Below are positions 1 through 52,520 of a stretch of DNA of 64,000 nucleotides, piece after piece. The position numbers were made by a program, and so were the translations under genes. The stretch lies in assembly GCA_021819525.1 (NCBI GenBank), contig JAKAQW010000001.1, positions 68 to 64,067 on the forward strand, written 5' to 3'. Below the pieces are notes generated by a model that was not told where the DNA came from, did no database searches, and saw nothing but the letters and a program-made list of their open reading frames with translations. Source of the DNA: Actinomycetes bacterium (GTDB lineage: Bacteria; Actinomycetota; Acidimicrobiia; Acidimicrobiales; UBA8190). Position 1 is the stretch's first letter. The number at the start of each line of letters is the position of its first letter.

Positions 1-104
1 CTGCCGCCGAAGGGCCCCCTGTGGCCCCCGAACCTGCCGCGGAGACCCCCCCTGCCGCCGAAGGGCCCGGCGCCGTCACCGAGGCCTCTGCCCCTGCCGA
101 CTGA
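1..104 (+). CDS. rplJ: 50S ribosomal protein L10, C-terminal end (partial, 5' end outside window)
   Basis: Frame 3 is open from base 3 to TGA 102-104. It reads [33 protein letters not shown], an Ala/Glu/Pro tail with G/C third positions. It lies directly upstream of rplL, as in the conserved rplJL pair. Identity rests on synteny only. Confidence 0.35.
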
Positions 105-171
105 CGAGCCCTCGCCTGTATCCCTGCCGACTGACGAGCCCTCGCCTTTACCCCTGGGCCTTTACCCCTGG
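92..171. repeat. 30-bp tandem duplication (x2) followed by a 14-bp tandem duplication (x2) in the rplJ-rplL spacer
   Basis: CCCTGCCGACTGACGAGCCCTCGCCT occurs at 92-117 and 122-147. CCTTTACCCCTGG occurs at 145-157 and 159-171. Confidence 0.92.
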
Positions 172-285
172 CCCGACGAGCGGCTTGGACTGGCGGTGCC
201 GGACCCCGTGCTCGACCGACGGGCAGGGTGCCGGCTCGACCGTAACGATCCCACCGATGCATCGACCACAAGGAGCACGAGCACC

Positions 286-678
286 ATGGCATTGACCAAA
301 GAAGAGATCCTCGACGGCATCGCCGCCCTGTCGGTCCTGGAGCTGTCCGAGCTCCTGAAGGAGTTCGAAGAGCGCTTCGGCGTGACCGCTGCTGCCCCGG
401 TGGCCGTGGTCGGTGCGCCGGCAGCGGCTGGCGCGGACAGCGCCGTGGGCGGGGCTGAGGACGAGAAGTCCGAGTTCGACGTGGTCCTGACCGCGGCAGG
501 TGATAAGAAGATCCAGGTCATCAAAGAAGTCCGGGCGCTCACCAGCCTCGGGCTGAAAGAGGCGAAGGACCTGGTCGACAGCGCCCCCAAGCCGGTGTTG
601 GAGCGGGTGTCCAAGGAAGACGCCGACAAGGCCAGGGCCAAGCTCGAAGAGGCGGGTGCGACCGTCGAGGTGAAGTAG
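286..678 (+). CDS. rplL: 50S ribosomal protein L7/L12
   Basis: ATG 286 is preceded by AAGGAG (270-275). The product [33 protein letters not shown]...[18 protein letters not shown]...[10 protein letters not shown] is typical L7/L12. The tracked ORF from 196 is only an in-frame upstream extension. Confidence 0.96.
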
Positions 679-764
679 CGGGCGGCACCGGCCAGGTCTC
701 GGCCATCGGGGGCTGTGTAGCTCGGGCGGGGTGCGACCGTCGAGGTGAAGTAGCGGGCGGCACC
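654..764. repeat. 36-bp exact direct repeat copying the rplL 3' end and stop
   Basis: GGGTGCGACCGTCGAGGTGAAGTAGCGGGCGGCACC occurs at 654-689 (rplL TAG at 676-678) and again at 729-764. Confidence 0.95.
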
Positions 765-854
765 AGGCCCGGCGAACTGCTCGGGCTCGGGCTCGGGCTG
801 TGGTAGCGGCCAGCTCCGCTCCACGGTGCCGGCAACCGCTCCGATCGCCAGGTC

Positions 855-947
855 GGGCTCCAGCCGCCTCCGGGGGAGAGGGCTCCAGCCGCCCCCGGGG
901 GAAGGTGCTCGACGCCGGGCTCGGGGGAAGGTGCTTGACGCCGGGCT
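855..947. repeat. two adjacent tandem duplications (25 bp x2, 26 bp x2) in the rplL-rpoB spacer
   Basis: GGGCTCCAGCCGCC(T/C)CCGGGGGA occurs at 855-877 and 880-902. CGGGGGAAGGTGCT(C/T)GACGCCGGGCT occurs at 896-921 and 922-947. Confidence 0.9.
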
Positions 948-1452
948 CGGCAATCTTTACCCTGACGGGGAGTGCCGCTGACGGGGAGCGCGCTGCCTTG
1001 CATCGCGGCGCTCGATCGCGTATGCTTGGCTGTTGCCGTGCTCCGCCGTCGCGCCAGTCTTGTCGTCGTCGCCTGAATGACGCGCTCTCCCGCGTCCTCC
1101 TCGGGTGTTTGCCTGTCTCCGGCCCACAGGCGGGCTGCTACGCGCCACCCGGGCCGTTGCCAGCCGGTCACCAAGCCGGCCGGGATCCGCCGTCTCGGTG
1201 CCGAACCGTCTCGGGCATCGGCTGCCACCCCGGCGGCGTGCTCCGGCCGGGTCCGGGTGGCCGGCAGTACGGGTCGTGCTCTGGGAGCGGAGCACGACAT
1301 CGAAGCGCTCCTTCGTGGCACCGGGGCCCGGCGGGGCTCCATGCGTGACGCCGAGCAGCCCCTCGCTCCAGCGCCCTCGGCCCCTGTCCCACAGCTGTCG
1401 CCCCTCGTTCCACCGTTGTCCGCCAGTCCCCGCAATCGGAGGGAGTAGGCCC

Positions 1453-13855: not shown

Positions 13856-14182
13856 GTGGCCGACACCACCCGACAGAAGATCCGGATCAGGTTGAAGGCC
13901 TACGACCACGAGATCCTCGACCAGTCCACGGAGAAGATCGTGCAGACCGTGCTGCGCACCCAAGCGAAGATCCTGGGTCCGGTGCCGTTGCCCACCGAGA
14001 AGCACCGCTACACGGTGATCCGCTCACCGCACAAGTACAAGGACAGCCGGGAGCACTTCGAGATGCGGGTGCACAAGCGCCTGGTGGACATCGTCGAGCA
14101 CACGCCGAAGACAGTCGACTCCCTCCAGCGCCTCGACCTGCCGGCCGGGGTCGACATCGAGATCAAGATCCAGAACGTCTGA
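13856..14182 (+). CDS. rpsJ: 30S ribosomal protein S10
   Basis: GTG 13856 follows GAGGAG. Product is [71 protein letters not shown], 108 aa. Confidence 0.95.
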
Positions 14183-14217
14183 GGTGATGATCCTCGCTCT
14201 GTGGCGCGAGCATCACC
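14183..14217 (+). terminator. GC-rich hairpin immediately after the rpsJ stop (possible terminator or processing site)
   Basis: GGTGATG (14183-14189) pairs with CATCACC (14211-14217), and CTCGC (14193-14197) pairs with GCGAG (14206-14210). The loop is 8 nt and no U-tract follows. Confidence 0.25.
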
Positions 14218-14757
14218 CGCTGTGGCGGCCCCTTCCAGAGGCCATGGGGGTCTGACCCGACGGCCGCCCGGTGTCGAGTGCCGGTGGGCTGCCGCGACGC
14301 TGCCAGGCGCAGAGCCGGCAGGCGGCACCAGCTCGCCGGAGCGGGTGGAGCGCCCTCGTAGGGAGCGGGTCGGGGCTGTCGAAAGCGGCGCTCCGGTGGT
14401 CGCCGGACGGCTCGGTCCGTCGATGCCACGGGAGCCGACTGGCGACCTCGGTGGTGGCAGGGTAGACTCGTGCGCCGGTAGCTGGCAGGGCAGTCGGGTA
14501 GCACGGCCAGCTGCGAACAGATCGACGTCTCCGGACGCCCGCCGCGGTGGGAACCACGGAGCAAACCAGACGAGCGCTCCGCTCGGGGGTTCCCGGGCGG
14601 AGCGTTGGCGTGCCGAACGGTCGTCGTTCGCCACGCCGGGCCAGAGCTGGCCACCCGAGCCAGCGGTACGCGCGAAGCAGATCGGCGCCGCAGCGACGGC
14701 GCCACGGGTGCCGACGGCGCCCGCCGAGACGGACAAGACGGAGAGGACCACGGGACC

Positions 14758-15423
14758 GTGGCAACGAAGGCGATCGTCGGCGAGAAGGTCGGCATGACCC
14801 AGGTGTGGGATGAGCAGCACCGTGCCATACCGGTCACGGTCCTGAAGGTCGCGCCGATGCGGGTCGTGGCGGTGAAGACCCCCGAGCGCGAGGGGTACAG
14901 CGCCTTACAGGTGACCTGGGGTGTCCGGCGCCCCAGCACCCTGACCAAGCCGGAGCAGGGGCACTACGCCAAGGCGGGCGTGGAGCCGGGCCGGCGCCTC
15001 GTCGAGCTCCGCCTCGACGACACCAGCGCCTACCAGGTGGGCCAGCAGCTGACAGCCGACCTGATCGCGGTGGGTGACCGGGTCGACGTGATGTCTGTCT
15101 CCAAGGGAAAGGGCTTCGCCGGGGGCATGAAGCGCCACAACTTCAAGGGCCAAGGCGCCGGTCACGGCAACCACAAGAAGCATCGTGCTCCGGGCTCTGT
15201 GGGCGCGTGCGCCACCCCGGCCCGTGTCTTCAAGGGGACGCGCATGGCCGGGCGTCTCGGCGGCCAGCAGGTCACCACCGTGAACCTGCAGGTGATGGCG
15301 GCCGATGCCGAACGCCAGCTCGTCTTGGTGAAAGGGGCTGTCCCCGGTCCCCGCGGCGCCGTCGTCGTGGTGCGCGACACGGTCAAAGGGACGGCGGGCA
15401 TCGTCGACGGGAGATCGGCATGA
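14758..15423 (+). CDS. rplC: 50S ribosomal protein L3
   Basis: GTG 14758 follows GGAGAGGA. Product is VATKAIVGEKVGMTQVWDEQHRAIPVTVLKV...KGKGFAGGMKRHNFKGQGAGHGNHKKHRAPGS, 221 aa. Confidence 0.94.
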   Translation: MATKAIVGEKVGMTQVWDEQHRAIPVTVLKVAPMRVVAVKTPEREGYSALQVTWGVRRPSTLTKPEQGHYAKAGVEPGRRLVELRLDDTSAYQVGQQLTADLIAVGDRVDVMSVSKGKGFAGGMKRHNFKGQGAGHGNHKKHRAPGSVGACATPARVFKGTRMAGRLGGQQVTTVNLQVMAADAERQLVLVKGAVPGPRGAVVVVRDTVKGTAGIVDGRSA

Positions 15424-16385
15424 CCACGTTCGCACCCGACACCCCGGCCCAGCGCCGGCGCGCTGCCCGTCCTGCGCCGGCGCGCCGCACGGTGGCCCGC
15501 AGGTCCGTCGACGGTGCCGTCTTGGGCCACGTCGAGCTGGACCCCGAGCTCTTCGGCATCGAGCCGAACGTCGGGGTCCTGCACCAGGTCGTCACCGCCC
15601 AGCTGGCAGCGGCCCGCGCTGGGACCCAGTCGACGCGGACTCGGGCAGAGGTAGCCGGCGGCGGGGCGAAGCCATTTCGCCAGAAGGGCACTGGCCGGGC
15701 TCGCCAGGGCTCCACTCGCGCGCCCCAGTGGTCCGGCGGCGGGGTGGCGATGGGTCCCAAGCCTCGTTCCTACCGCCAACGCACCCCGAAGAAGATGATC
15801 CGCCTGGCGCTCCGCTCGGCGCTCTCGGACCGGGCCGCGCAAGGCCAGGTGGCGCTCGTCGACGACTGGGCTATGAGCGAGCCGAAGACCAAGTCGGCGC
15901 TCGCCGCGCTGGCAGCCTTGGGATTGACCGGCCGGGTGATGGTGGTGCTCGATCCCGCCGACTGGGCGGCCGAGCGGTCGTTTGCCAACCTGCCCCGGGT
16001 GCAGGTGGTCCCGGTGACCGAGCTGAACGCGTACGACGTCATCCGCAGCGACTGGGTGGTCTTCACGGACCAGACCCTGCCTGGGATGACGTCCCCCGGG
16101 AGCGGCACCGACGTGCAGGCCGACAGCCCGGTCGACCCGGTTGCCGCCGGTGAGACCGGTCGTGGTGTGGGGGCCACCACCACCGACCCGGCCGCCGGGA
16201 GTGCCGCCGGGACCGACCCAGCCGCCGGTGAGACCGGATCGGACCAGCTCGGGACCGACCCAGCCGCCGGTGAGACCGGATCGGGCCAGCTCGGGACCGA
16301 CCGGGCCAACGATGCGGCAGACGAGGCGACGGGTGCGGGCAGCACCGGAGCGCACGGTACGGCGGGCGAGGAGGACGAGGCATGA
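15420..16385 (+). CDS. rplD: 50S ribosomal protein L4 with ~100 aa C-terminal low-complexity extension
   Basis: ATG 15420 overlaps the rplC stop (ATGA). The core contains GGGAKPFRQKGTGRARQGSTRAPQWSGGGVAMGPKPRSY. After about residue 220 comes a Gly/Thr/Asp/Ala tail that contains a 42-bp tandem duplication. Confidence 0.93.
   Translation: MTTFAPDTPAQRRRAARPAPARRTVARRSVDGAVLGHVELDPELFGIEPNVGVLHQVVTAQLAAARAGTQSTRTRAEVAGGGAKPFRQKGTGRARQGSTRAPQWSGGGVAMGPKPRSYRQRTPKKMIRLALRSALSDRAAQGQVALVDDWAMSEPKTKSALAALAALGLTGRVMVVLDPADWAAERSFANLPRVQVVPVTELNAYDVIRSDWVVFTDQTLPGMTSPGSGTDVQADSPVDPVAAGETGRGVGATTTDPAAGSAAGTDPAAGETGSDQLGTDPAAGETGSGQLGTDRANDAADEATGAGSTGAHGTAGEEDEA
16209..16302. repeat. 42-bp in-frame tandem duplication (x2.2) inside the rplD tail
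   Basis: GGGACCGACCCAGCCGCCGGTGAGACCGGATCGGACCAGCTC at 16209-16250 is repeated at 16251-16292 with 1 mismatch, then partially. It encodes TDPAAGETGS(D/G)QLG twice. Confidence 0.9.
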
Positions 16386-16675
16386 GGGCGGCCGAGCAGG
16401 TCCTGGTGCGACCGGTGGTGTCGGAGAAGACCTACGGGCTCATGGACGACGGGGTCTACGTCTTCGTGGTCTCTCCCGACGCCACCAAGGTGGAGGTCCG
16501 CATGGCAGTCGAGCAGATCTTCGGCGTGCGGGTGGCGAAGGTCAACACCCTCAACCGCAAGGGCAAGCGCCGGCGTAACCGCAAGAGCTCCACCTTCGGC
16601 GTCCGACCCGACACCAAGCGAGCCATGGTCACGCTGGTGGGCGGCGACCGGATCGACTTGTTCGAGAAGAGCTGA
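16382..16675 (+). CDS. rplW: 50S ribosomal protein L23
   Basis: ATG 16382 overlaps the rplD stop. Product contains [52 protein letters not shown]. Confidence 0.95.
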
Positions 16676-16685
16676 GAGGTCTCCC

Positions 16686-17522
16686 GTGACGCTTCGCAAG
16701 CGCAAGCCCACCAGTGCCGGTCGTCGCTTCCAGACGTCCTCCGACTTCGCCGAGATCACCCGGTCACGCCCCGAGCGCTCGCTGGTCACCCCGAAGATCT
16801 CGACGGGGGGCCGCAACACCCAAGGTCGCAAGACCGCCCGGCACCGTGGGGGTGGGCACAAGCAGCAGTACCGCATGGTGGACTTCAAGAGGAGCAAAGA
16901 CGGAGTGCCGGCCAAGGTGGCGGCGATCGAGTACGACCCCAACCGCAACGCCCGGATCGCCCTGCTGCACTACTACGACGGGGAGAAGCGCTACATCTTG
17001 GCCCCTGGCGGCGTCAAGGTCGGCGACGTGCTCCAAAGCGGGCAGGGAGCGGAGATCCGCCCGGGTAACGCCCTGCCGTTGCGGTTCATCCCGGTGGGCT
17101 CGACCGTGCACAACGTCGAGCTCCGCCCCGGGCAAGGCGGCAAGATGGCCCGTGGCGCGGGGATGAGCGCTCAGCTGGTGGCCAAAGAAGGCACGTTCGC
17201 CACCTTGCGGCTCCCTTCCACCGAGATGCGTCGGGTGGCCATCGACTGCCGGGCCACCTTGGGCGTCGTCGGCAACGCCGAGGCCGAGCTGATCTCCATC
17301 GGGAAAGCCGGCCGGAACCGGTGGCGTGGGGTGCGTCCCCAGACCCGCGGTGTGGCCATGAACCCGGTCGACCACCCGCTCGGCGGCGGCGAAGGGAAGT
17401 CGTCGGGGGGCCGGCACCCGGTGTCGCCGTGGGGCAAGCCCGAAGGCCGGACCCGGGCGCGCCACAAGCCGTCGGACCAGATGATCGTCCGGCGCCGCCG
17501 CACCCGCGGCGCGCGCCGATGA
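16686..17522 (+). CDS. rplB: 50S ribosomal protein L2
   Basis: 278 aa with [28 protein letters not shown] and [22 protein letters not shown]. Confidence 0.97.
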
Positions 17523-17541
17523 GCCGAGAGAGGACCTGCGC

Positions 17542-17820: not shown

Positions 17821-17821
17821 G

Positions 17822-18499: not shown

Positions 18500-18501
18500 C
18501 C

Positions 18502-19617: not shown

Positions 19618-19618
19618 C

Positions 19619-20056: not shown

Positions 20057-20059
20057 GCA

Positions 20060-34335: not shown

Positions 34336-37300
34336 CTACTGCTTCCCGAGCCGCCGGTCAACCTGGCTCGGCCGGTGCGGCTCGTGGTGTCGGTCGGTGT
34401 GGTGAGAGTCGGCGTGGTGAGAGCCGGTACGCGTCTCCAGGGGGCCCATGGCGTAGAACAGCCGCTCCACCACCTCCCGGGAGCGACGGGTGACGCGCCG
34501 GTACTGCTCGCGTAGCGCGGAGGGCGTCGTCTCGAGGCTCCTGGCCAGGCGAGCGAGCTGGTCGGGGCGCGACGGCAGGGCATCGCCAGGGGTGCCGCCG
34601 CCGGCCAGCGCGCCAACCAGGTACCAGCGATTGCGGGTGTGCTCGCAGAAGCGGTAGGCCGCCCGGAGGTGCTGGGCGTCGGTCGAGTCGAGCAGTCCAG
34701 ATGCCTCGAGGCGATCGAGCGCGGCCATGGTCCCCGGCTCGGCTACGCCGTGGCGTAGCTGGAGCAGCTGCACCGTCCACTCGACGTCGGCCAACGAGCC
34801 CCGACCCAGCTTCAGATGGAACTGGGGATCCTCGTGCGTCGGCAGACGTTCGCGCTCGATCCGGGCCTTCATGCGGCGGATCTCGGCGACCTCGCCCTCC
34901 GTCCACGGTCGCTGCCAGACCAGCTCGTCGACCAGCTCGAGGAACCGCCGGCCGAGCGCCCGGTCCCCGGCGACGACTCGGGCCCGGGCCATGGCTTGGC
35001 GCTCCCAGGTCTGGGCCCATCGGGCGAAGTAGGCGCGGTAGCTGGCCATGTCCCGCACCAGAGGCCCGTGGCCACCGTCGGGGCGAAGAGCCAGGTCGAT
35101 CCGCATGACCTGGTCGAACTGCGCCTCACCGTGCATCAGGTCGAGCAGCGACTCGGCGCCGGCGATTGCCCGCTCGGCCTCGCCGTCGCCGCACACGAGC
35201 ACCAGGTCGAGATCGCTCGCGTAGGAGAGCTCCGCCCCGGCGAAGCGGCCCAGACCCACCGCGCACCACGTCGAGCCTGACGCGGCGGTGGCCATGGCCG
35301 CGTCGAGCACGGCTTCTGCGGTTTCAGTGAGCGCTGCGGAGGTCTCGGGCACGTCGTCGATGCCGAGGATGTCCCGGCTCGCGATCTGCAGCAGCCGCCG
35401 TCGGTGGAAGCGGACCAGCCGGTCGCGGATGGAGTCGGGAGCGCCGGCGACGCGCAGGGGTGCCGTGCGCAGCGGGTCTTGCTCTGGTGTCGTGCGCAGC
35501 GGGTCTTGCTCTGGTGTCGTGCGCAGCGGGTCTTGCTCTGGTGTCGTGCGCAGCGGGTCTTGCTCTGGTGTCGTGCGCAGCGGGGAGAGCTCTTGCGGGC
35601 TGACCCGGGCCAGTTCCAGGTCGCCGAGCTCCGCGATGACGTCGGGGCTGCGGGTCAGCGCCTCACCGAGCAGGCGGCTGGTGCCGAGCAGGAGGCACAG
35701 GCGACGGGCAGCCTCGGGGGACTCCCGGAAGGTGGACAGCACCAGGGATCGCTGGTGGTGTCCGACGACGAGGTCACGCAGCTGCTGGAGGCCGAGATCG
35801 GGATCCGGGCTCTGTGACAGCCAGTCGAGCACCAAGGGCAGCATCTGCGCCATCAGCTGCGAGCTCCGGGTGAGCCCGCTGGCCAGGGCATCGATGGCTC
35901 GGCGGGTGCGCTGCGCATCGGCAAAGCCGAAGGCGTCGAGGCGCCGTTGGAGCGCCTCGGGCGACAACCGGTACGTCGGGGCCTGGCCGGCGAGCCCGGT
36001 GCGGTGGTCGAGTCGCGGGACAGTGCTGCAGGCGCCTGATCGCGGTGGGCCGTCGTCGCGTCGTGGTGGACCGGCACCGCGCCTCTCGCCACCGGGGCCA
36101 GCAGCCTTGCCTGACCGCTTCGAGGCGTCGACCAGCCGATCCTCCGGGGCCGCCAATTCCAGCTCGGCGAACGCCTCGAGCAAGGGGCGGAAGTACAGCC
36201 GCTCGTGGACGTTTCGCACCGCCTGTCGCTTGGCGCGCAGCGTCGCTGTCAACGCGCCATCCGCTGACATGGTGGGGGAATCGACGAACCCCAGGACCCG
36301 CGCGAGTCGGTGATAGGCCGCCGGGTCGCTCGGGACACTGTGCACCTGCTGCTCGTCGACCAGCTGCAGCCGGTGCTCGACGGTGCGCAGGAACCGGTAG
36401 CCGTCGGCCAGGATCGCGGCGTCGTCGGCCGCCACGTACCCGGACTCGGCCAGCTGGGCCAGGGCCACCAAGGTGCCGGGCGCTCGGATGCCCGGGTCGA
36501 GGCGCCCGTGGACCAGCTGGAGCAGCTGGACCGCGAACTCGACGTCTCGGATCCCTCCGGCTTCACGCTTCAAGTCCGGGCCGCGGCGAACTTGGCGTCG
36601 CTGGCGGACGCGCCGTGCTGTGAGCTCGGTTCGGGACTTCATCGCTCGCACCTGGGCCAGCTCCTCGGCGCTGAACGGCCGTCCCCAGACGGCTTCGGCG
36701 GCGCCTTCGGCGAACCGGTGCCCGAGGGCCGAGTCGCCGGCCGACGGCCGAGCCTTGAGCAGAGCTTGGCGCTCCCACGGCTGGGCCCAGCGCTCCCAGT
36801 ACGCTCGGTACCCTTCCAGCGTCCGCACCAAAGGCCCGGAACGGCCCTCGGGGCGGAGATCCGCGTCGACCCGGAAGCAGCGACCGGCCACAGCCAGCAG
36901 CCGGCGAGCCACCGCTTCGTCGGAGCCGTCAGCGCCGACGAAGACCACGTCGATGTCGCTGGCGTAGTTCAGCTCCCGCCCCCCGAGCTTTCCCATGGCC
37001 ACCACGGCCAGCGCGTCGCCCCTCGGGCCGGCGCCTCCGGCGATCGCCACTGCGCCGTTCAAGACGGCGTCGGCCAAGCGTGCCAGCTCGATTCCCACGG
37101 TCTCGAGGTCCGCCAGCCCGAGCAGGTCGCGTGCGGCGATCCGCAGCAGCTCGAGCTGCTTCGCCCGGGCCAGGCGGCTCACCTCGGTGTCGTCGGGGTC
37201 TCCGGTCACTGGCACTGGGCGCTCCAGGTGCTCCAGGACCTCCAGGGCTCCAGGGTCGGCCACCAGCAGCCGGCCCAAGGCGTCACTGGCGCCGGCGACG

Positions 37301-37569: not shown

Positions 37570-37715
37570 GCCGTGGCCGTGGCCGTGGCCGTGGCCGTGG
37601 CCGTGGCCGTGGCCGTGGCCGTGGCCGTGGCCGTGGCCGTGGCCCTGCAGCGGGCCGACATGGTGGCCGTCGCCGTGCAGCGGGCCGACATGGTGGCCGT
37701 GGCCCTGCACCGGGC
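37570..37715. repeat. (GCCGTG)12 hexanucleotide microsatellite followed by a 30-bp tandem repeat x2.5
   Basis: There are 12 perfect GCCGTG units at 37570-37641 (CACGGC = His-Gly on the minus strand). Then GCCCTGCAGCGGGCCGACATGGTGGCCGTC-like 30-mers occur at 37642-37671 and 37672-37701, plus a partial copy. Confidence 0.95.
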
Positions 37716-37813: not shown

Positions 37814-39844
37814 ATGTCGATTCGGGTGGCCCTGCACCAGGCCAACACCGTGGTCGGCGATGTCGGGGGGAACGTGGCTGCGATCGTCGATGCCCTGGCC
37901 GGTGCCGAAGCTGCGGGGGCATCGCTGCTGGCTGGACCCGAGCTGGCGGTCACCGGCTACCCACCCGAGGATCTGCTGATGAAGCCGGGGCTGGTGGCGG
38001 CCAACCTCGATGGCGTGGAGCAGGTCGCTGCCCGCTCGGGCACGTGCGCGGTGCTCGTCGGCTTCGTCGACGTGGTCGGCGAGGCCGGTCCACACGTCGG
38101 GCGTTCGGCCCGCCGGGCGATCCTCGAAGGAGGACCACGGCGGCTGCGCAACGCGGTAGCCGTGTGCAGCGGCGGGCGGGTCCGGGCTGTCTATCATAAG
38201 CGTCTCCTGCCCAACTACGGCGTCTTCGACGAGGCTCGCTGGTTCGGCCCTGGCGACGAGGCGTTGTCGGTGTACGGCGTGCACGGTGTGCGGGTCGGGG
38301 TGTCCATCTGCGAGGACCTGTGGTTCGCCGACGGCCCGGTCCCTGTCCTGGGTCGTGGTGGCGCTCAGGTGATCGTGAACGTCAATGCCTCGCCGTTCTC
38401 CATCGGCCGCTATGCGCAGCGGCGCCAGGTCCTCCGGGACCGGGCGGTGGAAGCAGGCTGCCCGATCGTCTACGTGAACCAGGTCGGCGGCCAGGACGAG
38501 CTGGTGTTCGACGGAGGCTCCATGGTGGTCGACGGTTCGGGCCAGGTGGTGGCCGCCGCCGGGAGGTTCACCGAAGAGCTGGTGCTCGTGGACGTCCCGC
38601 TGGCGGCGCCGAGCCGCCGCCGGTGCTCGACGCCTCTGCCCGTGGTGGAGGTGACGCCGTTGCCTCGCGTGGAGGTGACGGCTCTGCCCGTGGTGGAGGT
38701 GACGCCCGGTCAGGGCACAGCTGCGCTGTCCGATCGAGGTCGCAGTGCTGGGCCGGGCATTGGCGAGCCGGTGCCCGCCGGGGCATCGAGCCAGGACACC
38801 GGCGCCGGCTCCCACCACGACCACGCGCTCGCCACAGCGGCAGCAGATCCTCGATCGGGGGCTGCACGGTGCGAGCCGGCTCGAGGCGCTGTTCGCGCGC
38901 CGCGCTGGCCGACCGCCTGCCTCGCCGGCCCGCTGTCTGGACACGCGGAGATCCCGTGGCCGGATCTCGCCGTGGAAGCCGAGGTGTACGCCGCCCTGGT
39001 CCTCGGCACGCGCGACTATCTCACCAAGAACGGCTTCTCCGAAGCCGTCATCGGTTTGTCCGGCGGCATCGACTCCTCCCTCGTGGCGGCGGTGGCGGTG
39101 GATGCCCTCGGCCCGCGCCGAGTCCACGGTCTGGCCATGCCGTCGAGGTACTCGAGCAAGGGGTCGCTGTCCGACGCCCGCGTGCTGGCCGAGGCGCTTG
39201 GGGTGGGTCTCGAGGTCGTGCCCATCGAACCGGCGCACCTCGCTTTCGCCGGCATGCTCGGGGCCATCGACGTGGCGCTCACCGGGGTCACCGACGAGAA
39301 CCTCCAGTCCCGTCTGCGAGGTGTGCTCCTCATGGCGGTGTCGAACGCCCGAGGGTGGATCGTGCTCACCACGGGGAACAAGAGCGAGCTGGCCACCGGC
39401 TACTCCACCTTGTACGGTGACAGCGCGGGTGGGTTCGCCGTGATCAAGGACGTCCCGAAGACGCTGGTGTACCGGCTCTGCCGGTACCGGAACCTGCTGG
39501 CGGGCACCGATCTGGTGCCGCTGGCCGTGCTGGAGAAGCCACCCTCCGCCGAGCTGCGCCCAGACCAGCGAGACGACCAGAGCCTGCCTCCCTACGACGT
39601 GCTCGACCCGGTCCTCGCTGCGGTGGTGGAGGACGACGCCCCCATGGCGGAGCTGATCGGCGAGGGAATGGACCCAGCGATCGTCTCCCGGGTGGTACAG
39701 CTGGTCGACGCGGCCGAGTACAAGCGGCGCCAGTCGCCGATCGGCATCCGGATCACCCCTCGCGCGTTCGGCAAAGATCGTCGGATGCCCATCACGCACC
39801 GCTTCCGCGAGCATCTCGCCGACCCGACTGGCACAGCGAGGTGA
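37814..39844 (+). CDS. nadE: glutamine-dependent NAD+ synthetase
   Basis: It has an N-terminal CN-hydrolase domain (PELAVTGYPPEDL, KRLLPNYGVFDE, VSICEDLW) and a C-terminal synthetase domain (GLSGGIDSS, TGNKSELATGYSTLYGD). ATG 37814 (MSIRVALHQANTVVGD) is preferred over ATG 37784. Confidence 0.92.
   Translation: MSIRVALHQANTVVGDVGGNVAAIVDALAGAEAAGASLLAGPELAVTGYPPEDLLMKPGLVAANLDGVEQVAARSGTCAVLVGFVDVVGEAGPHVGRSARRAILEGGPRRLRNAVAVCSGGRVRAVYHKRLLPNYGVFDEARWFGPGDEALSVYGVHGVRVGVSICEDLWFADGPVPVLGRGGAQVIVNVNASPFSIGRYAQRRQVLRDRAVEAGCPIVYVNQVGGQDELVFDGGSMVVDGSGQVVAAAGRFTEELVLVDVPLAAPSRRRCSTPLPVVEVTPLPRVEVTALPVVEVTPGQGTAALSDRGRSAGPGIGEPVPAGASSQDTGAGSHHDHALATAAADPRSGAARCEPARGAVRAPRWPTACLAGPLSGHAEIPWPDLAVEAEVYAALVLGTRDYLTKNGFSEAVIGLSGGIDSSLVAAVAVDALGPRRVHGLAMPSRYSSKGSLSDARVLAEALGVGLEVVPIEPAHLAFAGMLGAIDVALTGVTDENLQSRLRGVLLMAVSNARGWIVLTTGNKSELATGYSTLYGDSAGGFAVIKDVPKTLVYRLCRYRNLLAGTDLVPLAVLEKPPSAELRPDQRDDQSLPPYDVLDPVLAAVVEDDAPMAELIGEGMDPAIVSRVVQLVDAAEYKRRQSPIGIRITPRAFGKDRRMPITHRFREHLADPTGTAR
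38636..38707. repeat. 24-bp in-frame tandem repeat x3 in the nadE interdomain linker
   Basis: CTGCCCGTGGTGGAGGTGACGCCG-like units lie at 38636-38659, 38660-38683 and 38684-38707. They encode LPVVEVTP / LPRVEVTA / LPVVEVTP. Confidence 0.9.
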
Positions 39845-40836
39845 CCAGCGCGTCGGACATGCCCGAGGCCGCTGTCCCCCCGGGGCGCCCGTTGTGGGTG
39901 GTGGACGGGTCGCTTCCAGGGGACATCGGCGGGCGATGGCGCTCCCCAGCAGGTGGCGTGGCCCCCGGTGGCTCCGGACTGGTGGCGCTGGCTCGCCAGG
40001 TCGGCGCCTACCGGTGGGTCGAGCACCGGCTGTTCGAAGTGCTCGGCGGCTGGTCGGCGTTCGAAGCGCAGCCTGGCCCGGCCACGCTCTTCTCCGTGCT
40101 GTCGATCCAGCACGCCACCCATGCCGAGCAGTTCGCCGCGCGGCTTCCCGTCCTGGCCGGCATCGACGCGGCGGCCTTGGGGGCGCCGTCGCCGGGCTGG
40201 AGCAACCTGCTGGACCAGCTGGCCACCACGGTGGAACCTGGTGCCTCCGCCGCCGGCAGTTCGCCGGGAGATCCCCGCGTTCCGGCGGCCGGCGGTCGGT
40301 CTGGGACCGGTGGCTCGGCACCGGGCAGCCGGCCCGGAGATCCCGGGGCGCCACCGGGCAGCGGCGCTCTACCGGAGACCCAGCAGCGTCGTCTCGACGG
40401 CGCTGGCGACACGCCGAGCGCAGCGGAGCTGTGGGCCACGGTGGCGCGGCTGGTCGGCCTCGGACGCGTGGTTCTCCCCCGCTTGGCTACCGAGTACGCA
40501 CGGAGGCTGTGGTGGTGCACCCCGTCCGAGGCGCCACTGGTCCCGGTGCTACGCGGTGTCCTGGCCGACACCCGCCACGCCTGGCTCACTGTCGAGGCCA
40601 TGGTGCAGGACTATCTGGCGGCACGCGACGTATTGGCGTACGGAAGCGGCCAGCCACCGGGTACCCACGACCCAGCTACCCACGACCCAGCTAGCCACGA
40701 CCCGACCGACCTCGCTCTTGGCGCTGCGATCACCTCGCGGGCAGCTCGACACCAGCAGGCGCTCGAAGCGCTCCTGGTTCGATCAGGTGCCGGCGTCCCG
40801 CCGCTCGGCACCGGCCGAGCCGGCGAGGCGTGCTGA
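39841..40836 (+). CDS. hypothetical protein, translationally coupled to nadE
   Basis: GTG 39841 overlaps the nadE TGA (GTGA). The 331-aa product has strong G/C third-position bias and two helical-looking blocks (LARQVGAYRWVEHRLFEVLGGW..., ...RLVGLGRVVLPRLATEYARRLWW...). These flank a Gly/Pro/Ser-rich insert. I did not recognise any family. Confidence 0.6.
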   Translation: MTSASDMPEAAVPPGRPLWVVDGSLPGDIGGRWRSPAGGVAPGGSGLVALARQVGAYRWVEHRLFEVLGGWSAFEAQPGPATLFSVLSIQHATHAEQFAARLPVLAGIDAAALGAPSPGWSNLLDQLATTVEPGASAAGSSPGDPRVPAAGGRSGTGGSAPGSRPGDPGAPPGSGALPETQQRRLDGAGDTPSAAELWATVARLVGLGRVVLPRLATEYARRLWWCTPSEAPLVPVLRGVLADTRHAWLTVEAMVQDYLAARDVLAYGSGQPPGTHDPATHDPASHDPTDLALGAAITSRAARHQQALEALLVRSGAGVPPLGTGRAGEAC

Positions 40837-41016
40837 GGACGTTCTCGTTGGGTCGGCCGGCTTCCCAGAGCTCGACAGGCTGTCGCGCAGTACGGTTCGC
40901 GCCGGTGGTGACCTGATCTTTTCCTACGACTCGCCCTGCCCCGGGCCAATGCGCGACAGGGTGTCGAGCCCGATCGAGGTGAGGCGTGCCGAGGACGTCC
41001 TCGTTCAGTCGGCCGG
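40825..41016. repeat. 36-bp imperfect direct repeat (32/36) framing the 120-bp spacer between convergent genes
   Basis: GAGGCGTGCTGAGGACGTTCTCGTTGGGTCGGCCGG at 40825-40860 contains the TGA of the orphan ORF. GAGGCGTGCCGAGGACGTCCTCGTTCAGTCGGCCGG at 40981-41016 contains the ino1 stop on the minus strand. Confidence 0.9.
40871..40968. terminator. 19-nt inverted repeat between convergent genes (possible bidirectional terminator)
   Basis: CTCGACAGGCTGTCGCGCA (40871-40889) matches the reverse complement of TGCGCGACAGGGTGTCGAG (40950-40968) at 17/19 positions. Each arm is also a small palindrome. Confidence 0.3.
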
Positions 41017-42102
41017 CCAGAGGGGTCCGGGGTCGCCGGCGGCGAATGCCTCGACGAGCGCATGGGCTTCGTCGTCGTGGAACTGCACCGGCGGCGACTT
41101 CATGAAGTAGGCCGACGGGCCGACCAACGGGCCTCCGATGTGCCGGTCGAGCGCCAGCTTGGCACAGCGAACGGCATCGATGATGACACCCGCGGAGTTC
41201 GGGGAGTCCCACACCTCGAGCTTCAGCTCGACGTTCAGCGGCACGTCACCGAAGTTCCGCCCCTCCATGCGGACATAAGCCCATTTTCGGTCGGCCAACC
41301 AGGGGACGTGGTCAGAGGGGCCGATATGGATGTCGTCGGCATCGAGCACGGTGTGCTCGATCTGGCTGGTGACCGCCTGGGTCTTCGAGATCTTCTTGGA
41401 GCGAAGGCGGTCGCGCTCGAGCATGTTGCGGAAGTCCATGTTGCCGCCGAAGTTCAGCTGGTAGGTGTGGTCCAGGGCGACACCACGGTCCTCGAACAGC
41501 CGGGTGAGAATGCGGTGGATGATGGTGGAGCCCACCTGGCTCTTGATGTCGTCACCGACGATGGGGACCCCCGCATCGCGAAAGCGCCGGGCCCACTCGG
41601 GGTCGCTGGCGATGAAGACCGGGATGGCGTTGACGAAAGCCACCTTCGCTTCCAGACAAGCCCGGGCGTAGCTCCGCTGGGCTTCTTCCGAGCCGACCGG
41701 GAGGTAGCTCACCAGCACGTCCACATGCCGCTCGGCGAGGACTGCGGCCACGTCGACCGGTTCGGCTGGTGACTCTTCCACCACGTCGCGGTAGAACGTG
41801 CCGAGCCCGTCGAGAGTGGGACCGCGTTGCACCGTGACGTCGAGATGGCCGACGTTGGCAAAACGGATCGTGTTGTTGTGGCCGGCGAAGATGGCTTTGC
41901 CCAGGTCGATGCCGACCTTCGTGGCGTCCACGTCGAACGCGGCCACTACCTGCAGGTCGCGGACGTGATATCCGCCGAGCTCGACGTGCATCAGACCGGG
42001 GACCATCTCGTCGACCGGTGCGTCGCGGTAGTAGCCGATCCCCTGGACGAGTGAGCTGGCGCAGTTCCCTACGCCGGCGATGGCCACCCGGATGCTGCTC
42101 AT
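41005..42102 (-). CDS. ino1: myo-inositol-1-phosphate synthase
   Basis: ATG 42102 ([22 protein letters not shown]...) gives 365 aa. Motifs are [29 protein letters not shown] and [11 protein letters not shown]. The tracked ORF start at 42312 is an upstream extension. Confidence 0.93.
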
Positions 42103-42815: not shown

Positions 42816-42982
42816 CAGGACACGCGGCCCGAAGAAAGAAGAGAGAGTCGATACATCGCTGTCACCTATCGTACCGATACATCGCCAGATTGGCAAACGA
42901 GGGATGTCGACGCAGGTGGGCCCGGAAACAGGGCACGGCGTGAGCGCTCCAGGAGCGCTTCGCGAGGCTCAGCGGCTGGGGC

Positions 42983-43167
42983 GGCTCGCCTGCTGGAACG
43001 GCTGGGACGGCTGGGACGGTTGGGACGGCGCGGCCGGCTCGCCTGCTGGGACGGCTGGGACCGCTCGGACGGCGCGGGCGGCTCGCCTGCTGGAACGGCT
43101 GGGACGGTTGGGACGGCGCGGCCGGCTCGCCTGCTGGAACGGCTGGGACCGCTCGGACGGCCCGAGC
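42983..43167. repeat. 44-bp tandem repeat x4 (88-bp A-B higher-order unit x2) in the padR / DUF5318 divergent region
   Basis: GGCTCGCCTGCTGG(A/G)ACGGCTGGGAC... units start at 42983, 43036, 43080 and 43124. The first copy carries an extra 9-bp CTGGGACGG. Confidence 0.9.
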
Positions 43168-43244
43168 GCCGGTTCGGGCGACCGGTGTGTCGGAGACAGC
43201 CCTCGCCGACCACGACCGGGTCGCGCGGCGCTACCCTGGACCCG

Positions 43245-43924: not shown

Positions 43925-44983
43925 GTGAGCGCAGCACAGAGCAACGGGGGCCGGAGCCGCAACCCCTCCGGCGGCCAGGGTGGCGGTCGCCCCAACCAGC
44001 GGGCGCAGCCCGCCGGCGGTCGCCAACCGGCATCCGCTGCACGCGGCGCGCGCCCGCCAGGGACCGGGGGAGGACGCCCGCCGCGCCCGCCGTCGGGCCG
44101 GCCGGTGTCGGCGCGTCCGCCCAAGCGCGGCGGCCTCTCGCCGTCGACCATCGCCGTGGGGGCGGTGGCCCTGGTGGTGGTGGTGGTCGTGGTCATCGTC
44201 GGTGTCAAGCTGACCGGGGGCAGCTCGTCGTCGACCGGGGCGAACGGGCTGAAGGCACCGGTGGACACCCCGGCGTCGGCCCAGGTGGTGAGCGAAGTCG
44301 AGCATGTGCCCGCCTCGGTGCAGGACGCGGTGGGATCCGGCGGCTCCAACGTGCTGACCGCACCGTCGGTGAAGACCGGGCAGCCGCCGCTGAAGTTGGG
44401 GTCGAGCCTGCTGCCGGCCGCGATGTACATCGGCGGCGAGTTCTGCCCGTACTGCGCGGCGACTCGCTGGGCGCTGCTCATGGCATTCTCGAAGTTCGGG
44501 ACCTTCTCCGGGCTGGAGGAGACGACGTCGTCGCCGTGGGACGTGTACCCGGCCACACCGACGTTCACCTTCGTCCACGCCCACTACACCAGCCCGTACG
44601 TCAATTTCGTGCCGGTGGAGTACCTTGGCCAGGACACGCACGGGGTGAACACCCACGGGATCCTGACTCCCCTCACCAAAGCCGAGAGCCATGCCTACGA
44701 CAAGTACGACACGGTCAACGGCACACAGGGCGTGCCGTTCGTCGATGTCGGCAACAAGTACCTGATCACCAGCGCCCCCATAAACCCCCAGCTCCTCGAC
44801 GGCAAGACCCAGGCCCAGGTGGCCAGCGAGCTGACCGATGCCAAGCTGCCCATGACCCAGGCCATCGTGGGCTTGGGGAACGACCTCATCGCCAGTGTGT
44901 GCGCGCTCGACGGCAACCATCCCGGCGCGGTCTGCTCGAACGCCGGGGTGGCCAAGGCAGCAAAGGCCATGGGCATCAGCTGA
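43925..44983 (+). CDS. membrane-anchored DUF929-like thioredoxin-fold protein (CPYC motif)
   Basis: It has an Arg/Gly/Pro-rich N-terminus, one TM helix (IAVGAVALVVVVVVVIVGV), and an exported domain with AAMYIGGEFCPYCAATRWALLMAFSKFG. The start is uncertain; GTG 43925 after GGAG is chosen, while the ORF is open from 43187. Confidence 0.75.
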   Translation: MSAAQSNGGRSRNPSGGQGGGRPNQRAQPAGGRQPASAARGARPPGTGGGRPPRPPSGRPVSARPPKRGGLSPSTIAVGAVALVVVVVVVIVGVKLTGGSSSSTGANGLKAPVDTPASAQVVSEVEHVPASVQDAVGSGGSNVLTAPSVKTGQPPLKLGSSLLPAAMYIGGEFCPYCAATRWALLMAFSKFGTFSGLEETTSSPWDVYPATPTFTFVHAHYTSPYVNFVPVEYLGQDTHGVNTHGILTPLTKAESHAYDKYDTVNGTQGVPFVDVGNKYLITSAPINPQLLDGKTQAQVASELTDAKLPMTQAIVGLGNDLIASVCALDGNHPGAVCSNAGVAKAAKAMGIS

Positions 44984-45017
44984 TCATGGGCATCAGCTGA
45001 TCATGGGCATCAGCTGA
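44969..45017. repeat. 17-bp tandem repeat x3 copying the last codons and stop of the DUF929-like gene
   Basis: ATGGGCATCAGCTGATC occurs at 44969-44985 and 44986-45002, and ATGGGCATCAGCTGA at 45003-45017. The real stop is TGA 44981-44983. Confidence 0.95.
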
Positions 45018-45159: not shown

Positions 45160-45202
45160 GTCGAGGCCCCGAGAACAGGGAGTCGAGGCCCCGAGACAGG
45201 GA
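45160..45202. repeat. 22-bp tandem duplication upstream of the VKOR-like gene
   Basis: GTCGAGGCCCCGAGAACAGGGA at 45160-45181 is followed by GTCGAGGCCCCGAGACAGGGA at 45182-45202, ending 16 nt before ATG 45219. Confidence 0.9.
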
Positions 45203-45218
45203 GACGAACGGAGCAGCC

Positions 45219-47839: not shown

Positions 47840-48132
47840 CAGGCGCCTGCTTCGACGCCGCACCGGCTGCAGGCGGGGTCCCGGCCACGTCCCCCTTCCG
47901 AGCGGCCCCTTCCGAGCGGCCCCTGCGACGCCGCACCGGCTGCAGGGGGCCCCGGCCGGCACGGTCGGCTCGCGCCGGAGACGGAGGTGCTGCCCACGAC
48001 GGCAGGCCCCCGTCACCGGTCGGCTAGCATGGTCGCCGGTCACGGTCCGGTGACCCTGAGAGAGCCCCTGCTCCGCTTGGCGGAGCCCCGCGCCGATCGT
48101 CGGCCCGGGTCCGGAGGGAGGCGTGCCCGCCC

Positions 48133-49876: not shown

Positions 49877-50093
49877 GTGCCGTCACACCCCCCTGGCACC
49901 ATGGGGGCGATGCCTGCGCAGCGTGCGGATCAGAGCCGGAGCCGACGGGTCGTCGAGCCCCACGGTCGCCGTCAGCGCCACGGTCGCCGTCAGCGCCACC
50001 GGCGGCGGATCGACCAGCCGGTTCGCTGGCCGCGGGAGCTCGTCGGTGTCGTGCCAGGAGGGCCGCATCACCCCCGCCACCGGGTACCTCGCG

Positions 50094-50102
50094 TTGTCCA
50101 CA
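50094..50102 (+). promoter_or_regulatory. DnaA-box-like 9-mer TTGTCCACA upstream of dnaB
   Basis: An exact TTGTCCACA lies 85 nt upstream of the dnaB ATG. It is immediately followed by an 8-bp inverted repeat, GGGATTTC (50103-50110) and GAAATCCC (50127-50134), in a locally AT-richer stretch. Confidence 0.3.
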
Positions 50103-50186
50103 GGGATTTCCCCCGCGTTCTGGCCCGAAATCCCCAGGTTTCACCTCTAGCGTTCCGCAGGCTGGACCGGTCAGGGTAAGAGGACC

Positions 50187-51560
50187 ATGCCTCGCGCGCT
50201 CGAAGCCTCCCGTTCTCGTCCCGTGCTGTCTGCCGCCGTCGGCGGTGGCCGTGTGCCTCCGCACAACCTCGAAGCAGAGGAGTCGGTGCTCGGCGCGATG
50301 CTCCTGTCGCGTGACGCCATTGCCGCCGCGCTCGAGTGCTGCACGGCCGACGACTTCTACAAGCCGGCCCATGCCCACGTGTTCGCCGCGGTCACCGCCT
50401 TGTACACCCGGGGCGAGCCTGCCGACCCGGTGACCGTGGCCGACGAGCTGCGGCGCTCCGGGGCGATCGAGGCGATAGGCGACCCGTCGTTGCTGCTGTC
50501 GCTCCAAGTGAACACCCCGTCCACGGCGAACGCCGGGCACTACGCCCGGATCGTCGAAGAGCATGCGCTGCTGCGCCGACTGGTCACTGTGGCCGGAGAG
50601 ATCGCCGAGCTCGGCTACAGCGTGCCCGAGGACGTCGCTGAAGCGGTGGACCGGGCGGAGACCTTGGTGTTCGAGGTCGCCCAGCGGCGCGTGGTGGACA
50701 CCCTGGCACCGCTGCGGGACCTGCTGGCGCAGAGCCTCGACCACCTCGAGCACCTCTACGAGCGTGACGAGTCGATCACCGGCGTCCCGACGGGCTACGC
50801 CGATCTCGACGAACGGTTGGCCGGTCTGCAGCCCTCGAACCTGGTGGTCGTGGGAGCCCGACCCGCCATGGGCAAGACCAGCTTCGCCCTGGGCATCGTG
50901 AACCACGCAGCCATGACCATGCGCAAGCCGGTGCTGCTGTTCTCCCTGGAGATGAGCCACCTGGAGCTGACGCAGCGCCTCTTGTGCTCCGAGGCCCGTG
51001 TCGATGCCACCCGGATGCGAAACGGCCGTCTCCTCGAGAGCGATTGGCCGAAGATCTCCGACGCCATCGGGCGGCTCGGGGACGCTCCCATCTTCATCGA
51101 CGACAACCCGAACGTCACGGTCATGGACATCCGGGCCAAGGCCCGGCGCCTCATGGCCCGTGAGGGTCTGGGCTTGGTGGTGGTGGACTACTTGCAGCTG
51201 ATGACCGGAAGGAACCGGGCAGAGAGCCGGCAGGTGGAGGTGTCGGAGATCAGCCGGGGTATGAAGATCCTGGCCCGAGAGCTGAACGTTCCTGTGGTCG
51301 CCCTCTCGCAGCTGTCGAGGAACCTGGAGATGCGACAAGACAAGCGTCCGGTGCTGGCGGACCTCCGCGAGTCGGGCTCCATCGAGCAAGACGCCGACGT
51401 GGTCCTCTTCATCTACCGTGACGAGGTCTACAACCCCGACTCTCCCGATCGGGGCACCGCCGAGGTGATCATTGCCAAGCACCGCAACGGCCCCGTGGGC
51501 CACGTGCAGCTGGCGTTCGTCGACCACTACACCCGGTTCGCCAACATGGCCCGGGTCTGA
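50187..51560 (+). CDS. dnaB: replicative DNA helicase DnaB
   Basis: 457 aa with PPHNLEAEESVLGAMLL, Walker A GARPAMGKTSFAL and VVVDYLQLM. No intein-sized insertion is present. Confidence 0.96.
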   Translation: MPRALEASRSRPVLSAAVGGGRVPPHNLEAEESVLGAMLLSRDAIAAALECCTADDFYKPAHAHVFAAVTALYTRGEPADPVTVADELRRSGAIEAIGDPSLLLSLQVNTPSTANAGHYARIVEEHALLRRLVTVAGEIAELGYSVPEDVAEAVDRAETLVFEVAQRRVVDTLAPLRDLLAQSLDHLEHLYERDESITGVPTGYADLDERLAGLQPSNLVVVGARPAMGKTSFALGIVNHAAMTMRKPVLLFSLEMSHLELTQRLLCSEARVDATRMRNGRLLESDWPKISDAIGRLGDAPIFIDDNPNVTVMDIRAKARRLMAREGLGLVVVDYLQLMTGRNRAESRQVEVSEISRGMKILARELNVPVVALSQLSRNLEMRQDKRPVLADLRESGSIEQDADVVLFIYRDEVYNPDSPDRGTAEVIIAKHRNGPVGHVQLAFVDHYTRFANMARV

Positions 51561-51671
51561 CCGGTCCATCAGCGGGTGGACTCGGTCTTCGTGCTCGGCG
51601 GTGACAGGTCGATCTGTGACCGCCGACCCGCCCGAGGACGGATCTGGCCGGCGACACGTACCCGAGCGGTG

Positions 51672-52286
51672 CTAGGTGGTGGTGGTGGGATCGGTCGTGT
51701 CGGATGCTGCGCAGCTCGCGCAGGTTCCCTGCACGGCGAAGTGGCGTGGCTGCAGGAGGAACCCGTAGCGACGCAGCACTGCTTGCTCGAGATTGTCGAA
51801 GAGCGCTTCTGGCACTGCGATCGACTGGCCGCAGCGCTCGCAGACCAGGTGCCCGTGACGATCTTCACGCAGGTGGTAGGTGGCGGGGCCGTGGCCGAGA
51901 TGGACGTGCTCGACGACACCGAGCTGTTCGAGCTCGTCCAAATTGCGGTAGACGGTGGAACGATGCACCGCTGGATCCAACGCGTTGACTTGGGCGACCA
52001 GCTCGTCGGCGGTGCGGTGGCCTTGCCGTTCGAACAGGCAGTGCAGCAGCAGCCGACGTGACTCGGTGACCCGGCCACCTCGTGCCCGGAACAGATCGAG
52101 GACTGCAGCTATCGCGTCGTCACCAGCTGGAGCCCCGGTCTGGTCCGGTCCCGGCAGCGCTTCACCTGCTGGCGCCGGTCGCGCCGGGGGGGTCGGACCA
52201 GCTGCAGCCACCGCGTCGGGCGGCGGCGCCGAGCAGGGAGCCACCGGCAGGTGGTCGGGCGTCGTCATCCGTGCCACCCCACTCAC
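51672..52286 (-). CDS. Fur-family metalloregulator with ~55 aa Pro/Ala-rich N-terminal extension
   Basis: Winged helix RSTVYRNLDELEQLGVV, the His cluster HVHLGHGPATYHLREDRHGHLVC, and two CxxC pairs (CERC, CASC). The start is GTG 52286 or ATG 52268. Metal specificity cannot be told from the sequence. Confidence 0.85.
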   Translation of the reverse strand: MSGVARMTTPDHLPVAPCSAPPPDAVAAAGPTPPARPAPAGEALPGPDQTGAPAGDDAIAAVLDLFRARGGRVTESRRLLLHCLFERQGHRTADELVAQVNALDPAVHRSTVYRNLDELEQLGVVEHVHLGHGPATYHLREDRHGHLVCERCGQSIAVPEALFDNLEQAVLRRYGFLLQPRHFAVQGTCASCAASDTTDPTTTT

Positions 52287-52313
52287 GGTACTGCTCTTTC
52301 GGGCGCGGCCCGC

Positions 52314-52520
52314 AGGCGGCTCGGGCCCCAGCGGGCAGGCGGCTCGGGCCCCAGCGGGTAGGCGCCTCGGGCCCCAGCGGGTAGGCGCCTCGGGCCCCAG
52401 CGGGTAGGCGCCTCAGGCCCCAGCGGGTAGGCGCCTCAGGCCCCAGCGGGTAGGCGCCTCAGGCCCCAGCGGGTAGGCGCCTCAGGCCCCAGCGGGTAGG
52501 CGCCTCAGGCCCCAGCGGAC
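52314..52520. repeat. 23-bp tandem repeat x9
   Basis: AGGCG(G/C)CTC(G/A)GGCCCCAGCGGG(C/T) units run head to tail from 52314 to 52520. The last unit contains the final codons and stop (TCA 52505-52507 on the + strand) of the minus-strand small ORF. The array ends 28 nt upstream of the Fur-family start. Confidence 0.95.

Follow-up and report, generated by a model that had tools for sequence, protein, structure and literature searches.

Duplicated gene ends in a 64-kb Acidimicrobiales region probably belong to a selection-filtered minisatellite landscape that needs no gene-end mechanism

Tandem arrays in the window and their turnover between strains

The window, the whole 64-kb stretch of DNA analysed here, derives from an uncultured high-GC Acidimicrobiales bacterium from soil and has a GC content of 69%. 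Pfam-annotated gene calls place in it rplJL-rpoBC, the S10, spc and alpha ribosomal operons, truA, glnE, nadE and ino1, as well as a DUF929-VKOR pair, rpsF-ssb-rpsR-rplI-dnaB and a sugar ABC transporter; no tRNA and no Rfam match at gathering score was found in the window. The nearest species-level genomes are metagenome-assembled genomes (MAGs) of uncultured Acidimicrobiales or Acidimicrobiaceae, with Ino1 identities of at most 85%. Short segments are repeated in tandem throughout the window, and at several genes the repeated segment includes the last codons and the stop codon. A sequence-only reading had proposed, as the simplest account, a very high rate of short duplications with selection for protein-neutral copies, and had also raised a mechanism tied to gene ends because the concentration at stop codons seemed striking. 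The first proposal is borne out by copy-number polymorphism between strains, unchanged proteins and reading-frame statistics; the second is not.

Arrays were defined with Tandem Repeats Finder (TRF) at a period of at least 10 and a score of at least 50. The 96 rows returned for the window at a score of at least 30 yield 24 distinct arrays under this definition, with periods of 14–88 bp and scores of 53–361, or ~3.75 arrays per 10 kb; their head-to-tail units fall in the ~10–100 bp range of variable-number tandem repeats (VNTRs). Twenty shuffled windows, in which codon usage was kept inside genes and composition in spacers, gave a mean of 2.25 arrays and a top score of 76. No array was detected at the same thresholds in 50 kb of Escherichia coli K-12 around the same rplJL-rpoBC genes.

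Every repeat listed in the sequence-only reading is present at or near its listed position, including the in-frame arrays in glnE, nadE and rplD (Table 1) and those upstream of rplQ and VKOR, which end 11–12 nt before the start codons. Its description of duplicated gene ends as tandem holds for rplJ, truA and DUF929, where the last codons and the stop are repeated head to tail, but rplL and ino1 have an A-B-A arrangement with periods of 75 and 156 bp. At rplJ, identified as the L10 gene with its end at position 104 by Pfam-annotated gene calls in sister contigs L083–L091, the TGA at 102–104 recurs at 132–134, and the translation reads SAPAD-stop and then IPAD-stop. The ino1 stop codon (41005–41007, minus strand) lies in the repeat copy at 40978–41017; the repeat pair linking ino1 to a convergent orphan open reading frame (ORF; 39958–40836) is there as claimed, but that ORF belongs to no family and its coding statistics are ambiguous. 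Likewise, the 23-bp array does hold the stop of a small ORF of 75 aa on the minus strand, but the coding signal of that ORF is weak, and the Fur-family gene proposed near 52.5–53.5 kb has no match in Pfam or NCBIfam. A further stop-spanning array, absent from the earlier list, lies at the GH5 cellulase gene.

Exact-protein look-up retrieved MEGAHIT metagenome contigs (ENA ERZ2723xxxx; k141 assemblies), one Joint Genome Institute (JGI) contig and NCBI MAGs; the sister strains compared here are more than 99.5% identical to the window. In the 61.4 kb for which another strain provides sequence, 119 single nucleotide polymorphism (SNP) sites and 23 indel alleles at 14 loci were counted; with the truA 52-bp allele the total becomes 24 alleles at 15 loci. 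Changes of whole units account for 11 of the 14 indel loci (units of 4–75 bp), or 12 of 15 with truA, which is the copy-number variation characteristic of VNTRs. These co-occurring strains differ from the window mainly by whole repeat units, the kind of polymorphism that the sequence-only reading had proposed to look for in close relatives. The 23-bp array alone has five copy-number alleles among strains, differing by 1, 4, 5 and 6 units (x3–9).

Four of the stop-spanning duplications are present or absent, or vary in copy number, between strains: those of rplL (75 bp), truA (52 bp), DUF929 (17 bp) and GH5 (43 bp). The rplL segment is missing from L085 and L088, in which the L7/L12 protein is identical, and the second truA copy is missing from L106, which encodes the same 310-aa protein. 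The GH5 product is 680 aa in both alleles, and for DUF929, rplL and truA both alleles were retrieved through identical protein sequences. One-copy and two-copy alleles coexist among co-occurring strains at rplL, truA, GH5 and the pre-rplQ array, a pattern compatible with change in either direction. The stop-spanning duplications are young.

Same-GC relatives served as a further control. Across the syntenic ino1 region of 80 Acidimicrobiales, array density ranges from 0 to ~8 per 10 kb, and the strain cluster of the window, at 7.7 per 10 kb, ranks top among the ino1-region loci of at least 10 kb. Some relatives at 69–71% GC have no arrays in this region, and the correlation of density with GC content is moderate (rho=0.43, loci with GC of at least 0.68). 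The array density is extreme for the order.

Placement of arrays and alternative explanations

Placement relative to genes was analysed in a data set of ~0.99 Mb consisting of the window, 48 ino1 loci of relatives (GC at least 0.68) and strain flanks. Genes were called with a codon model in which the score of a frame is relative to all shadow frames and to non-coding sequence; on the window the model recovers 58 of 60 curated 3' ends. Each array was collapsed to one unit plus remainder, and its chance under random placement of containing a stop, containing a start, lying between genes or lying inside a gene was computed. Of the 253 arrays, 163 lie inside genes and 72 are intergenic, 14 contain a stop, 3 contain a start (one array has both) and 2 are of other kinds.

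Selection is visible in three ways. Periods divisible by 3 are found in 150 of the 163 arrays inside genes (92%), compared with 4 of 13 stop-spanning arrays (31%) and 53% of those called intergenic. Arrays spanning a start codon are depleted (3 versus 14.5 expected, z=-3.4). Finally, the arrays in front of rplQ and VKOR end just before the Shine-Dalgarno sequence.

No comparable signal exists at stop codons. A mechanism that targets gene 3' ends, for example through breaks at termination sites or R-loops or through replication-transcription collisions, would account for the 6 of 20 window arrays outside coding sequence that span a stop, and for the ino1 3' end having been hit independently in the window and in four relatives (L002, L017, L023 and L026). 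However, 14 of the 90 arrays not interior to genes contain a stop in the ~0.99 Mb, versus 14.1 expected from random placement, and no enrichment appears in any subset, whether arrays of at least 95% identity, of fewer than 3 copies, of periods of at least 20, in array-dense loci or with periods not divisible by 3; in the last, the cleanest subset, 9 arrays span a stop versus 8.0 expected. For the window by itself, on the basis of curated genes and including the rplL and ino1 pairs, the 6 of 20 compare with 4.97 expected (P=0.37), or with 3.99 when only stop or intergenic positions are considered (P=0.18). Most arrays lie elsewhere, the affected genes include co-directional ones (rplJ, rplL, truA, DUF929) as well as opposite-strand ones (ino1, GH5), and ino1 faces a convergent gene, so the spacer downstream of it is of the least constrained kind. 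The sequence-only reading had stated that a lack of enrichment at stops beyond the neutral-position expectation would refute its idea; on ~1 Mb of loci rather than a whole genome no such enrichment is seen, and the gene-end mechanism, which we consider very improbable, is largely refuted.

The arrays might instead be functional elements under selection, acting as expression-tuning contingency loci, as stability elements at mRNA 3' ends or as back-up stop codons. Several arrays that vary between strains do lie a short distance before ribosome-binding sites or in the promoter regions of divergent genes, and in Mycobacterium tuberculosis the length of a VNTR upstream of fpg1 correlated with expression (PMC2734929). 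We nevertheless judge this unlikely, as the unit sequences are specific to each locus and share no motif, arrays occupy every tolerant context at roughly random frequencies, presence and absence alleles coexist in near-identical strains as neutral variants would, and nothing was detected with Rfam. Assembly of short metagenome reads could in principle create or distort repeats: the MEGAHIT contigs are k141 assemblies, in which arrays longer than 141 bp may collapse, and the rplQ array coincides with an N-gap in one JGI scaffold. However, most window arrays are far shorter than the k-mer, and the JGI contig and several MEGAHIT contigs from other samples show 0 indels relative to the window over 10.7 kb that includes the rplJ and rplL repeats; the rplJ array is identical in six strain contigs from five samples fully aligned there (L082–L084, L086, L089–L091). 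Relatives' MAGs of the Microflora Danica MFD series, which we take to be long-read assemblies, carry comparable arrays on contigs of up to 2.09 Mb, stop-spanning ones included (e.g. in L017, whose contig measures 2.09 Mb). Since the same arrays emerge from independent assemblies, an artefact is excluded, with a residual probability close to nil. Equally hard to credit is a dispersed or mobile family, resembling mycobacterial interspersed repetitive units (MIRUs), repetitive extragenic palindromes (REPs) or miniature inverted-repeat transposable elements (MITEs), or ectopic insertion with target duplication of the type known from clustered regularly interspaced short palindromic repeats (CRISPR). 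The rplL locus, with its repeat-filler-repeat shape of 36-39-36 bp, suggests such an origin, and Supply et al. are said to have described in 1997 mycobacterial MIRUs that lie between operon genes and overlap stop and start codons. Against this, all-against-all blastn of the unit consensus sequences returned only two 11-nt chance matches, so that units at different loci share no consensus of a MIRU or other family, and the rplL filler occurs nowhere else in the window. Repeat and filler lengths, at 36/39 bp (rplL), 29/14 bp and 40/116 bp, are not fixed as in CRISPR-like or ectopic spacer integration, and there are two copies per locus.

Repeat catalogue and unusual spacers

Table 1. Tandem arrays and direct repeat pairs in the window, with copy number given as xN and differences among strains where seen.
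Feature	Position	Strand	Stop codon	Repeat and remarks
rplJ (L10) stop array	84–173		TGA 102–104	30 bp x2.4 (84–156) and overlapping 14 bp x2.6; TRF
rplL 3' end and stop	654–764			Exact 36-bp copies 654–689 and 729–764 with unique 39-bp filler; A-B-A, period 75
rplL-rpoB spacer array	855–950			25/26 bp x3 in 775-bp spacer; TRF
Pre-rpoB array	1358–1424			21 bp x3.1 (72% matches); ends 29 nt before rpoB start; TRF
rplD (L4, 321 aa) C-terminal extension	16208–16302	+		42 bp x2.3, in frame; TRF
rplV (L22) tail	18318–18373	+		36-bp unit x1.55, in frame; one unit more in L092
rpsK-rpsD spacer	29689–29725			19 bp x1.9; TRF
Pre-rplQ array	31516–31552			19 bp x1.9 (100%); ends just before rplQ ribosome-binding site; single copy in L093
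truA stop array	32789–32898		32844–32846	52 bp x2 plus 6 bp (x2.1), 100% identical; geometry of microhomology-mediated tandem duplication
glnE near C-terminus	34393–34427	-		15 bp x2.3, in frame; TRF
glnE internal	35459–35584	-		27 bp x4.7, in frame; 3 units (81 bp) fewer in L001
glnE N-terminus and start codon	37568–37730	-		GCCGTG x12.5 (His-Gly repeat) and 30-bp units
nadE	38607–38706	+		24/48-bp repeat, in frame
Doubtful ORF 39958–40836	40662–40703			15 bp x2.8; TRF
ino1 pair	40822–41017			40-bp direct repeats 40822–40861 and 40978–41017, 88% identical, period 156
Divergent padR-DUF5318 promoter region	42948–43177			Nested 9/44/88-bp array; 11-, 9- and 44-bp indels in L001
DUF929 stop array	44968–45017		44981–44983	17 bp x2.9; 2 copies and same protein in L001
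Pre-VKOR array	45160–45207			22 bp x2.2; ends 11 nt before VKOR start codon
Downstream of panB stop	47843–47949			34-bp pair (85% identical, period 73) and 14 bp x2.4
rplI-dnaB spacer	49951–49999			18 bp x2.7; TRF
23-bp array	52314–52518			23 bp x8.9; last unit holds stop of weakly supported 75-aa minus-strand ORF (52505–52732)
Array next to 23-bp array	52533–52586			24 bp x2; TRF
orf146 (likely truncated DesA-like fragment)	59928–60067	-		18 bp x7.9, in frame; +18, -18 and -90 bp among strains
GH5 cellulase stop array	62244–62344		62311–62313	43 bp x2.4; gene on minus strand; 43 bp lacking in L101

Repeats also accompany length variation and low-complexity sequence in several proteins. Among nine strains, L10 (L083 9079–9819) has at least seven length alleles of between 215 and 273 aa, because a 30-bp tail repeat just upstream of the window start varies in copy number. 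Other unusually long ribosomal proteins with low-complexity extensions are encoded at 13856–24930 (L4, 321 aa; L22, 225–237; S3, 371; L29, 134–138; L30, 100). GlnE has a (His-Gly)12 tract near its N-terminus, encoded by the GCCGTG repeat (37570–37644, minus strand), and two L001 SNPs fall inside it. The product of orf146 (59878–60318, minus strand) matches the N-terminus of a DesA-family fatty-acid desaturase over its first ~60 residues (NCBIfam, E=7e-10, profile positions 6–64 of 385), and its remainder is an (AGISAP)n repeat. Strains encode versions of 116 to 152 aa, and orf146 is likely what remains of a truncated gene. Near panB, L001 carries SNP clusters (5 in 47841–47849 and 4 in 47932–47950) in or next to the two 34-bp repeat copies, which look like gene conversion or compensatory hairpin change rather than independent mutations. 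What seemed to be a 99-bp insertion in L092, at the rplQ array, proved to be a run of N.

Three non-coding or gene-poor stretches were also noted. The rpsJ and rplC genes are normally almost contiguous in the S10 operon; here they are separated by 575 bp of non-coding sequence (14183–14757), which is present in all sister strains. This spacer contains no tandem repeat, Rfam match or credible ORF, and a 198-aa ORF at 14201–14797 has no Pfam match. The rplL-rpoB spacer (679–1452, 775 bp) is packed with repeats, and the 267-aa antisense ORF called across it in most strains, which has no Pfam match, probably does not represent a real gene. A 1.7-kb stretch of lower GC content at 52062–53794, flanked by the most variable array (23 bp x3–9), has weak coding statistics; none of its ORFs has a Pfam or NCBIfam match, and it contains no recognizable gene.

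Junctions, mechanism and comparison with known systems

The truA locus shows how a stop-spanning duplication may arise. In the single-copy allele of L106, the 52-bp segment begins with CCCTGA and is immediately followed by a second CCCTGA, which holds the TGA stop. The two truA alleles have the sequence geometry of the substrate and product of microhomology-mediated tandem duplication (MTD). Junction microhomology of 4 nt or more is present in half of the 62 perfect two-copy duplications of the lineage data set, compared with a few percent expected by chance; this proportion matches the ~50% reported for natural insertions in Schizosaccharomyces pombe (PMC8639346).

We consider it probable, with good confidence, that the window displays a VNTR or minisatellite landscape made by slippage and filtered by selection, without any gene-end mechanism. 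Short segments of ~10–90 bp would very often be duplicated head to tail and then lost again, likely through replication slippage or template switching between short direct repeats, the route being MTD followed by VNTR-type expansion and contraction. Duplications would arise irrespective of genes, and the harmful ones would be purged by purifying selection. Within coding sequence only copies that keep the frame and lie in tolerant tails and linkers would last, copies in spacers would persist, and copies including the stop codon could be kept whatever their frame, because the ribosome terminates in the first copy and makes the same protein. If duplication is random and selection acts as the filter, duplicated gene ends would be a neutral by-product occurring at the frequency of random placement.

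Several observations weigh against this slippage-and-selection account, or at least limit it. The other half of the 62 perfect duplications have only 0–3 nt of microhomology, so that MTD describes part of the set, and filler between copies at rplL (39 bp), GH5 (14 bp) and DUF929 (1 nt) is not predicted by simple slippage. Both features are partly compatible with the 0–3 nt homology and filler expected of fill-in during nonhomologous end joining by Ku and LigD, and they leave room for a component of end joining or template switching that may contribute. We infer that slippage rather than end joining is the molecular route. Copy numbers of arrays longer than the 141-bp k-mer, such as the 23-bp array, may be assembly-dependent or collapsed. 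The genes of the relatives come from an in-house codon model, and with 53% of 'intergenic' arrays having periods divisible by 3, some of these probably lie in unannotated coding sequence, which would make the expected number of stop-spanning arrays somewhat lower. Finally, the independent repeats across the ino1 stop in the window and four relatives hint at local hot spots. Those in the relatives lie at L002 11086–11138, L017 11090–11125, L023 11090–11121 and L026 7295–7336, with units of 13, 13, 14 and 21 bp, and in L002 the last 10 nt and TGA of ino1 are present four times. They may mark a recurrent hot spot, or simply the least-constrained spacer between convergent genes.

It is possible, if doubtful, that this Acidimicrobiales clade is a natural 'minisatellite mutator', in which a lineage-specific change in replication or repair causes short tandem duplications to be gained and lost far more often than in relatives of the same GC content. 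Such a change might be the loss or modification of a factor that normally keeps slippage or template switching in check, or the activity of an end-joining or translesion pathway; the SSB encoded in the window has a normal DEEPF tail, with no obvious lesion there. If true, such a process would continuously remodel spacers, ribosomal-protein tails and gene ends.

Duplicated gene ends need no new mechanism under the slippage-and-selection account, and mark sites where a duplication is invisible to selection. The arrays are usable as VNTR markers for strains of an abundant uncultured actinobacterium of soil and peat. They also call for caution in assembly and annotation, where arrays may collapse, scaffolds may have gaps and spacers full of repeats may yield false ORFs. 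As an outlier of array density in its order, the lineage could serve as a natural system for studying rates of bacterial tandem duplication, and could also show how the low-complexity tails of ribosomal proteins grow.

The literature yielded nothing specific on tandem duplication of stop codons in Acidimicrobiia or in bacteria generally, and the closest parallels are broader. The arrays resemble bacterial VNTRs and minisatellites, such as the MIRU-VNTR, exact tandem repeat (ETR) and multiple-locus VNTR analysis (MLVA) loci of M. tuberculosis, in having head-to-tail units of ~10–100 bp that are mostly intergenic or in frame. As in M. tuberculosis, copy number differs between near-identical strains, and some arrays lie upstream of genes or between operon genes. 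However, M. tuberculosis has 41 MIRU loci in a 4.4-Mb genome (PMC2734929), whereas the window is far denser, its units are locus-specific rather than a dispersed family, and arrays are also found in ribosomal-protein and other core genes.

Phase-variable contingency loci of Haemophilus, Neisseria and Campylobacter likewise consist of hypermutable repeat tracts that change by slippage, but those have 1–8-bp units whose length switches a gene on or off, whereas the window retains protein-neutral changes with no switching evident. MTDs (Dan et al. 2021, PMC8639346) are tandem copies of a segment that has a short direct repeat at its borders; they revert readily and coexist in populations with the single-copy allele, about half of insertions have flanking microhomology, and the coding events that are retained tend to be in frame. 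The window shares these properties, with the truA pair as a textbook example. The published MTDs come from fission yeast, where most were subclonal variants (PMC8639346); the window differs in having many multi-copy arrays, in a bacterium, with some junctions that carry filler or lack microhomology. The repeats of the window are an extreme new instance of the already known VNTR and MTD kind.

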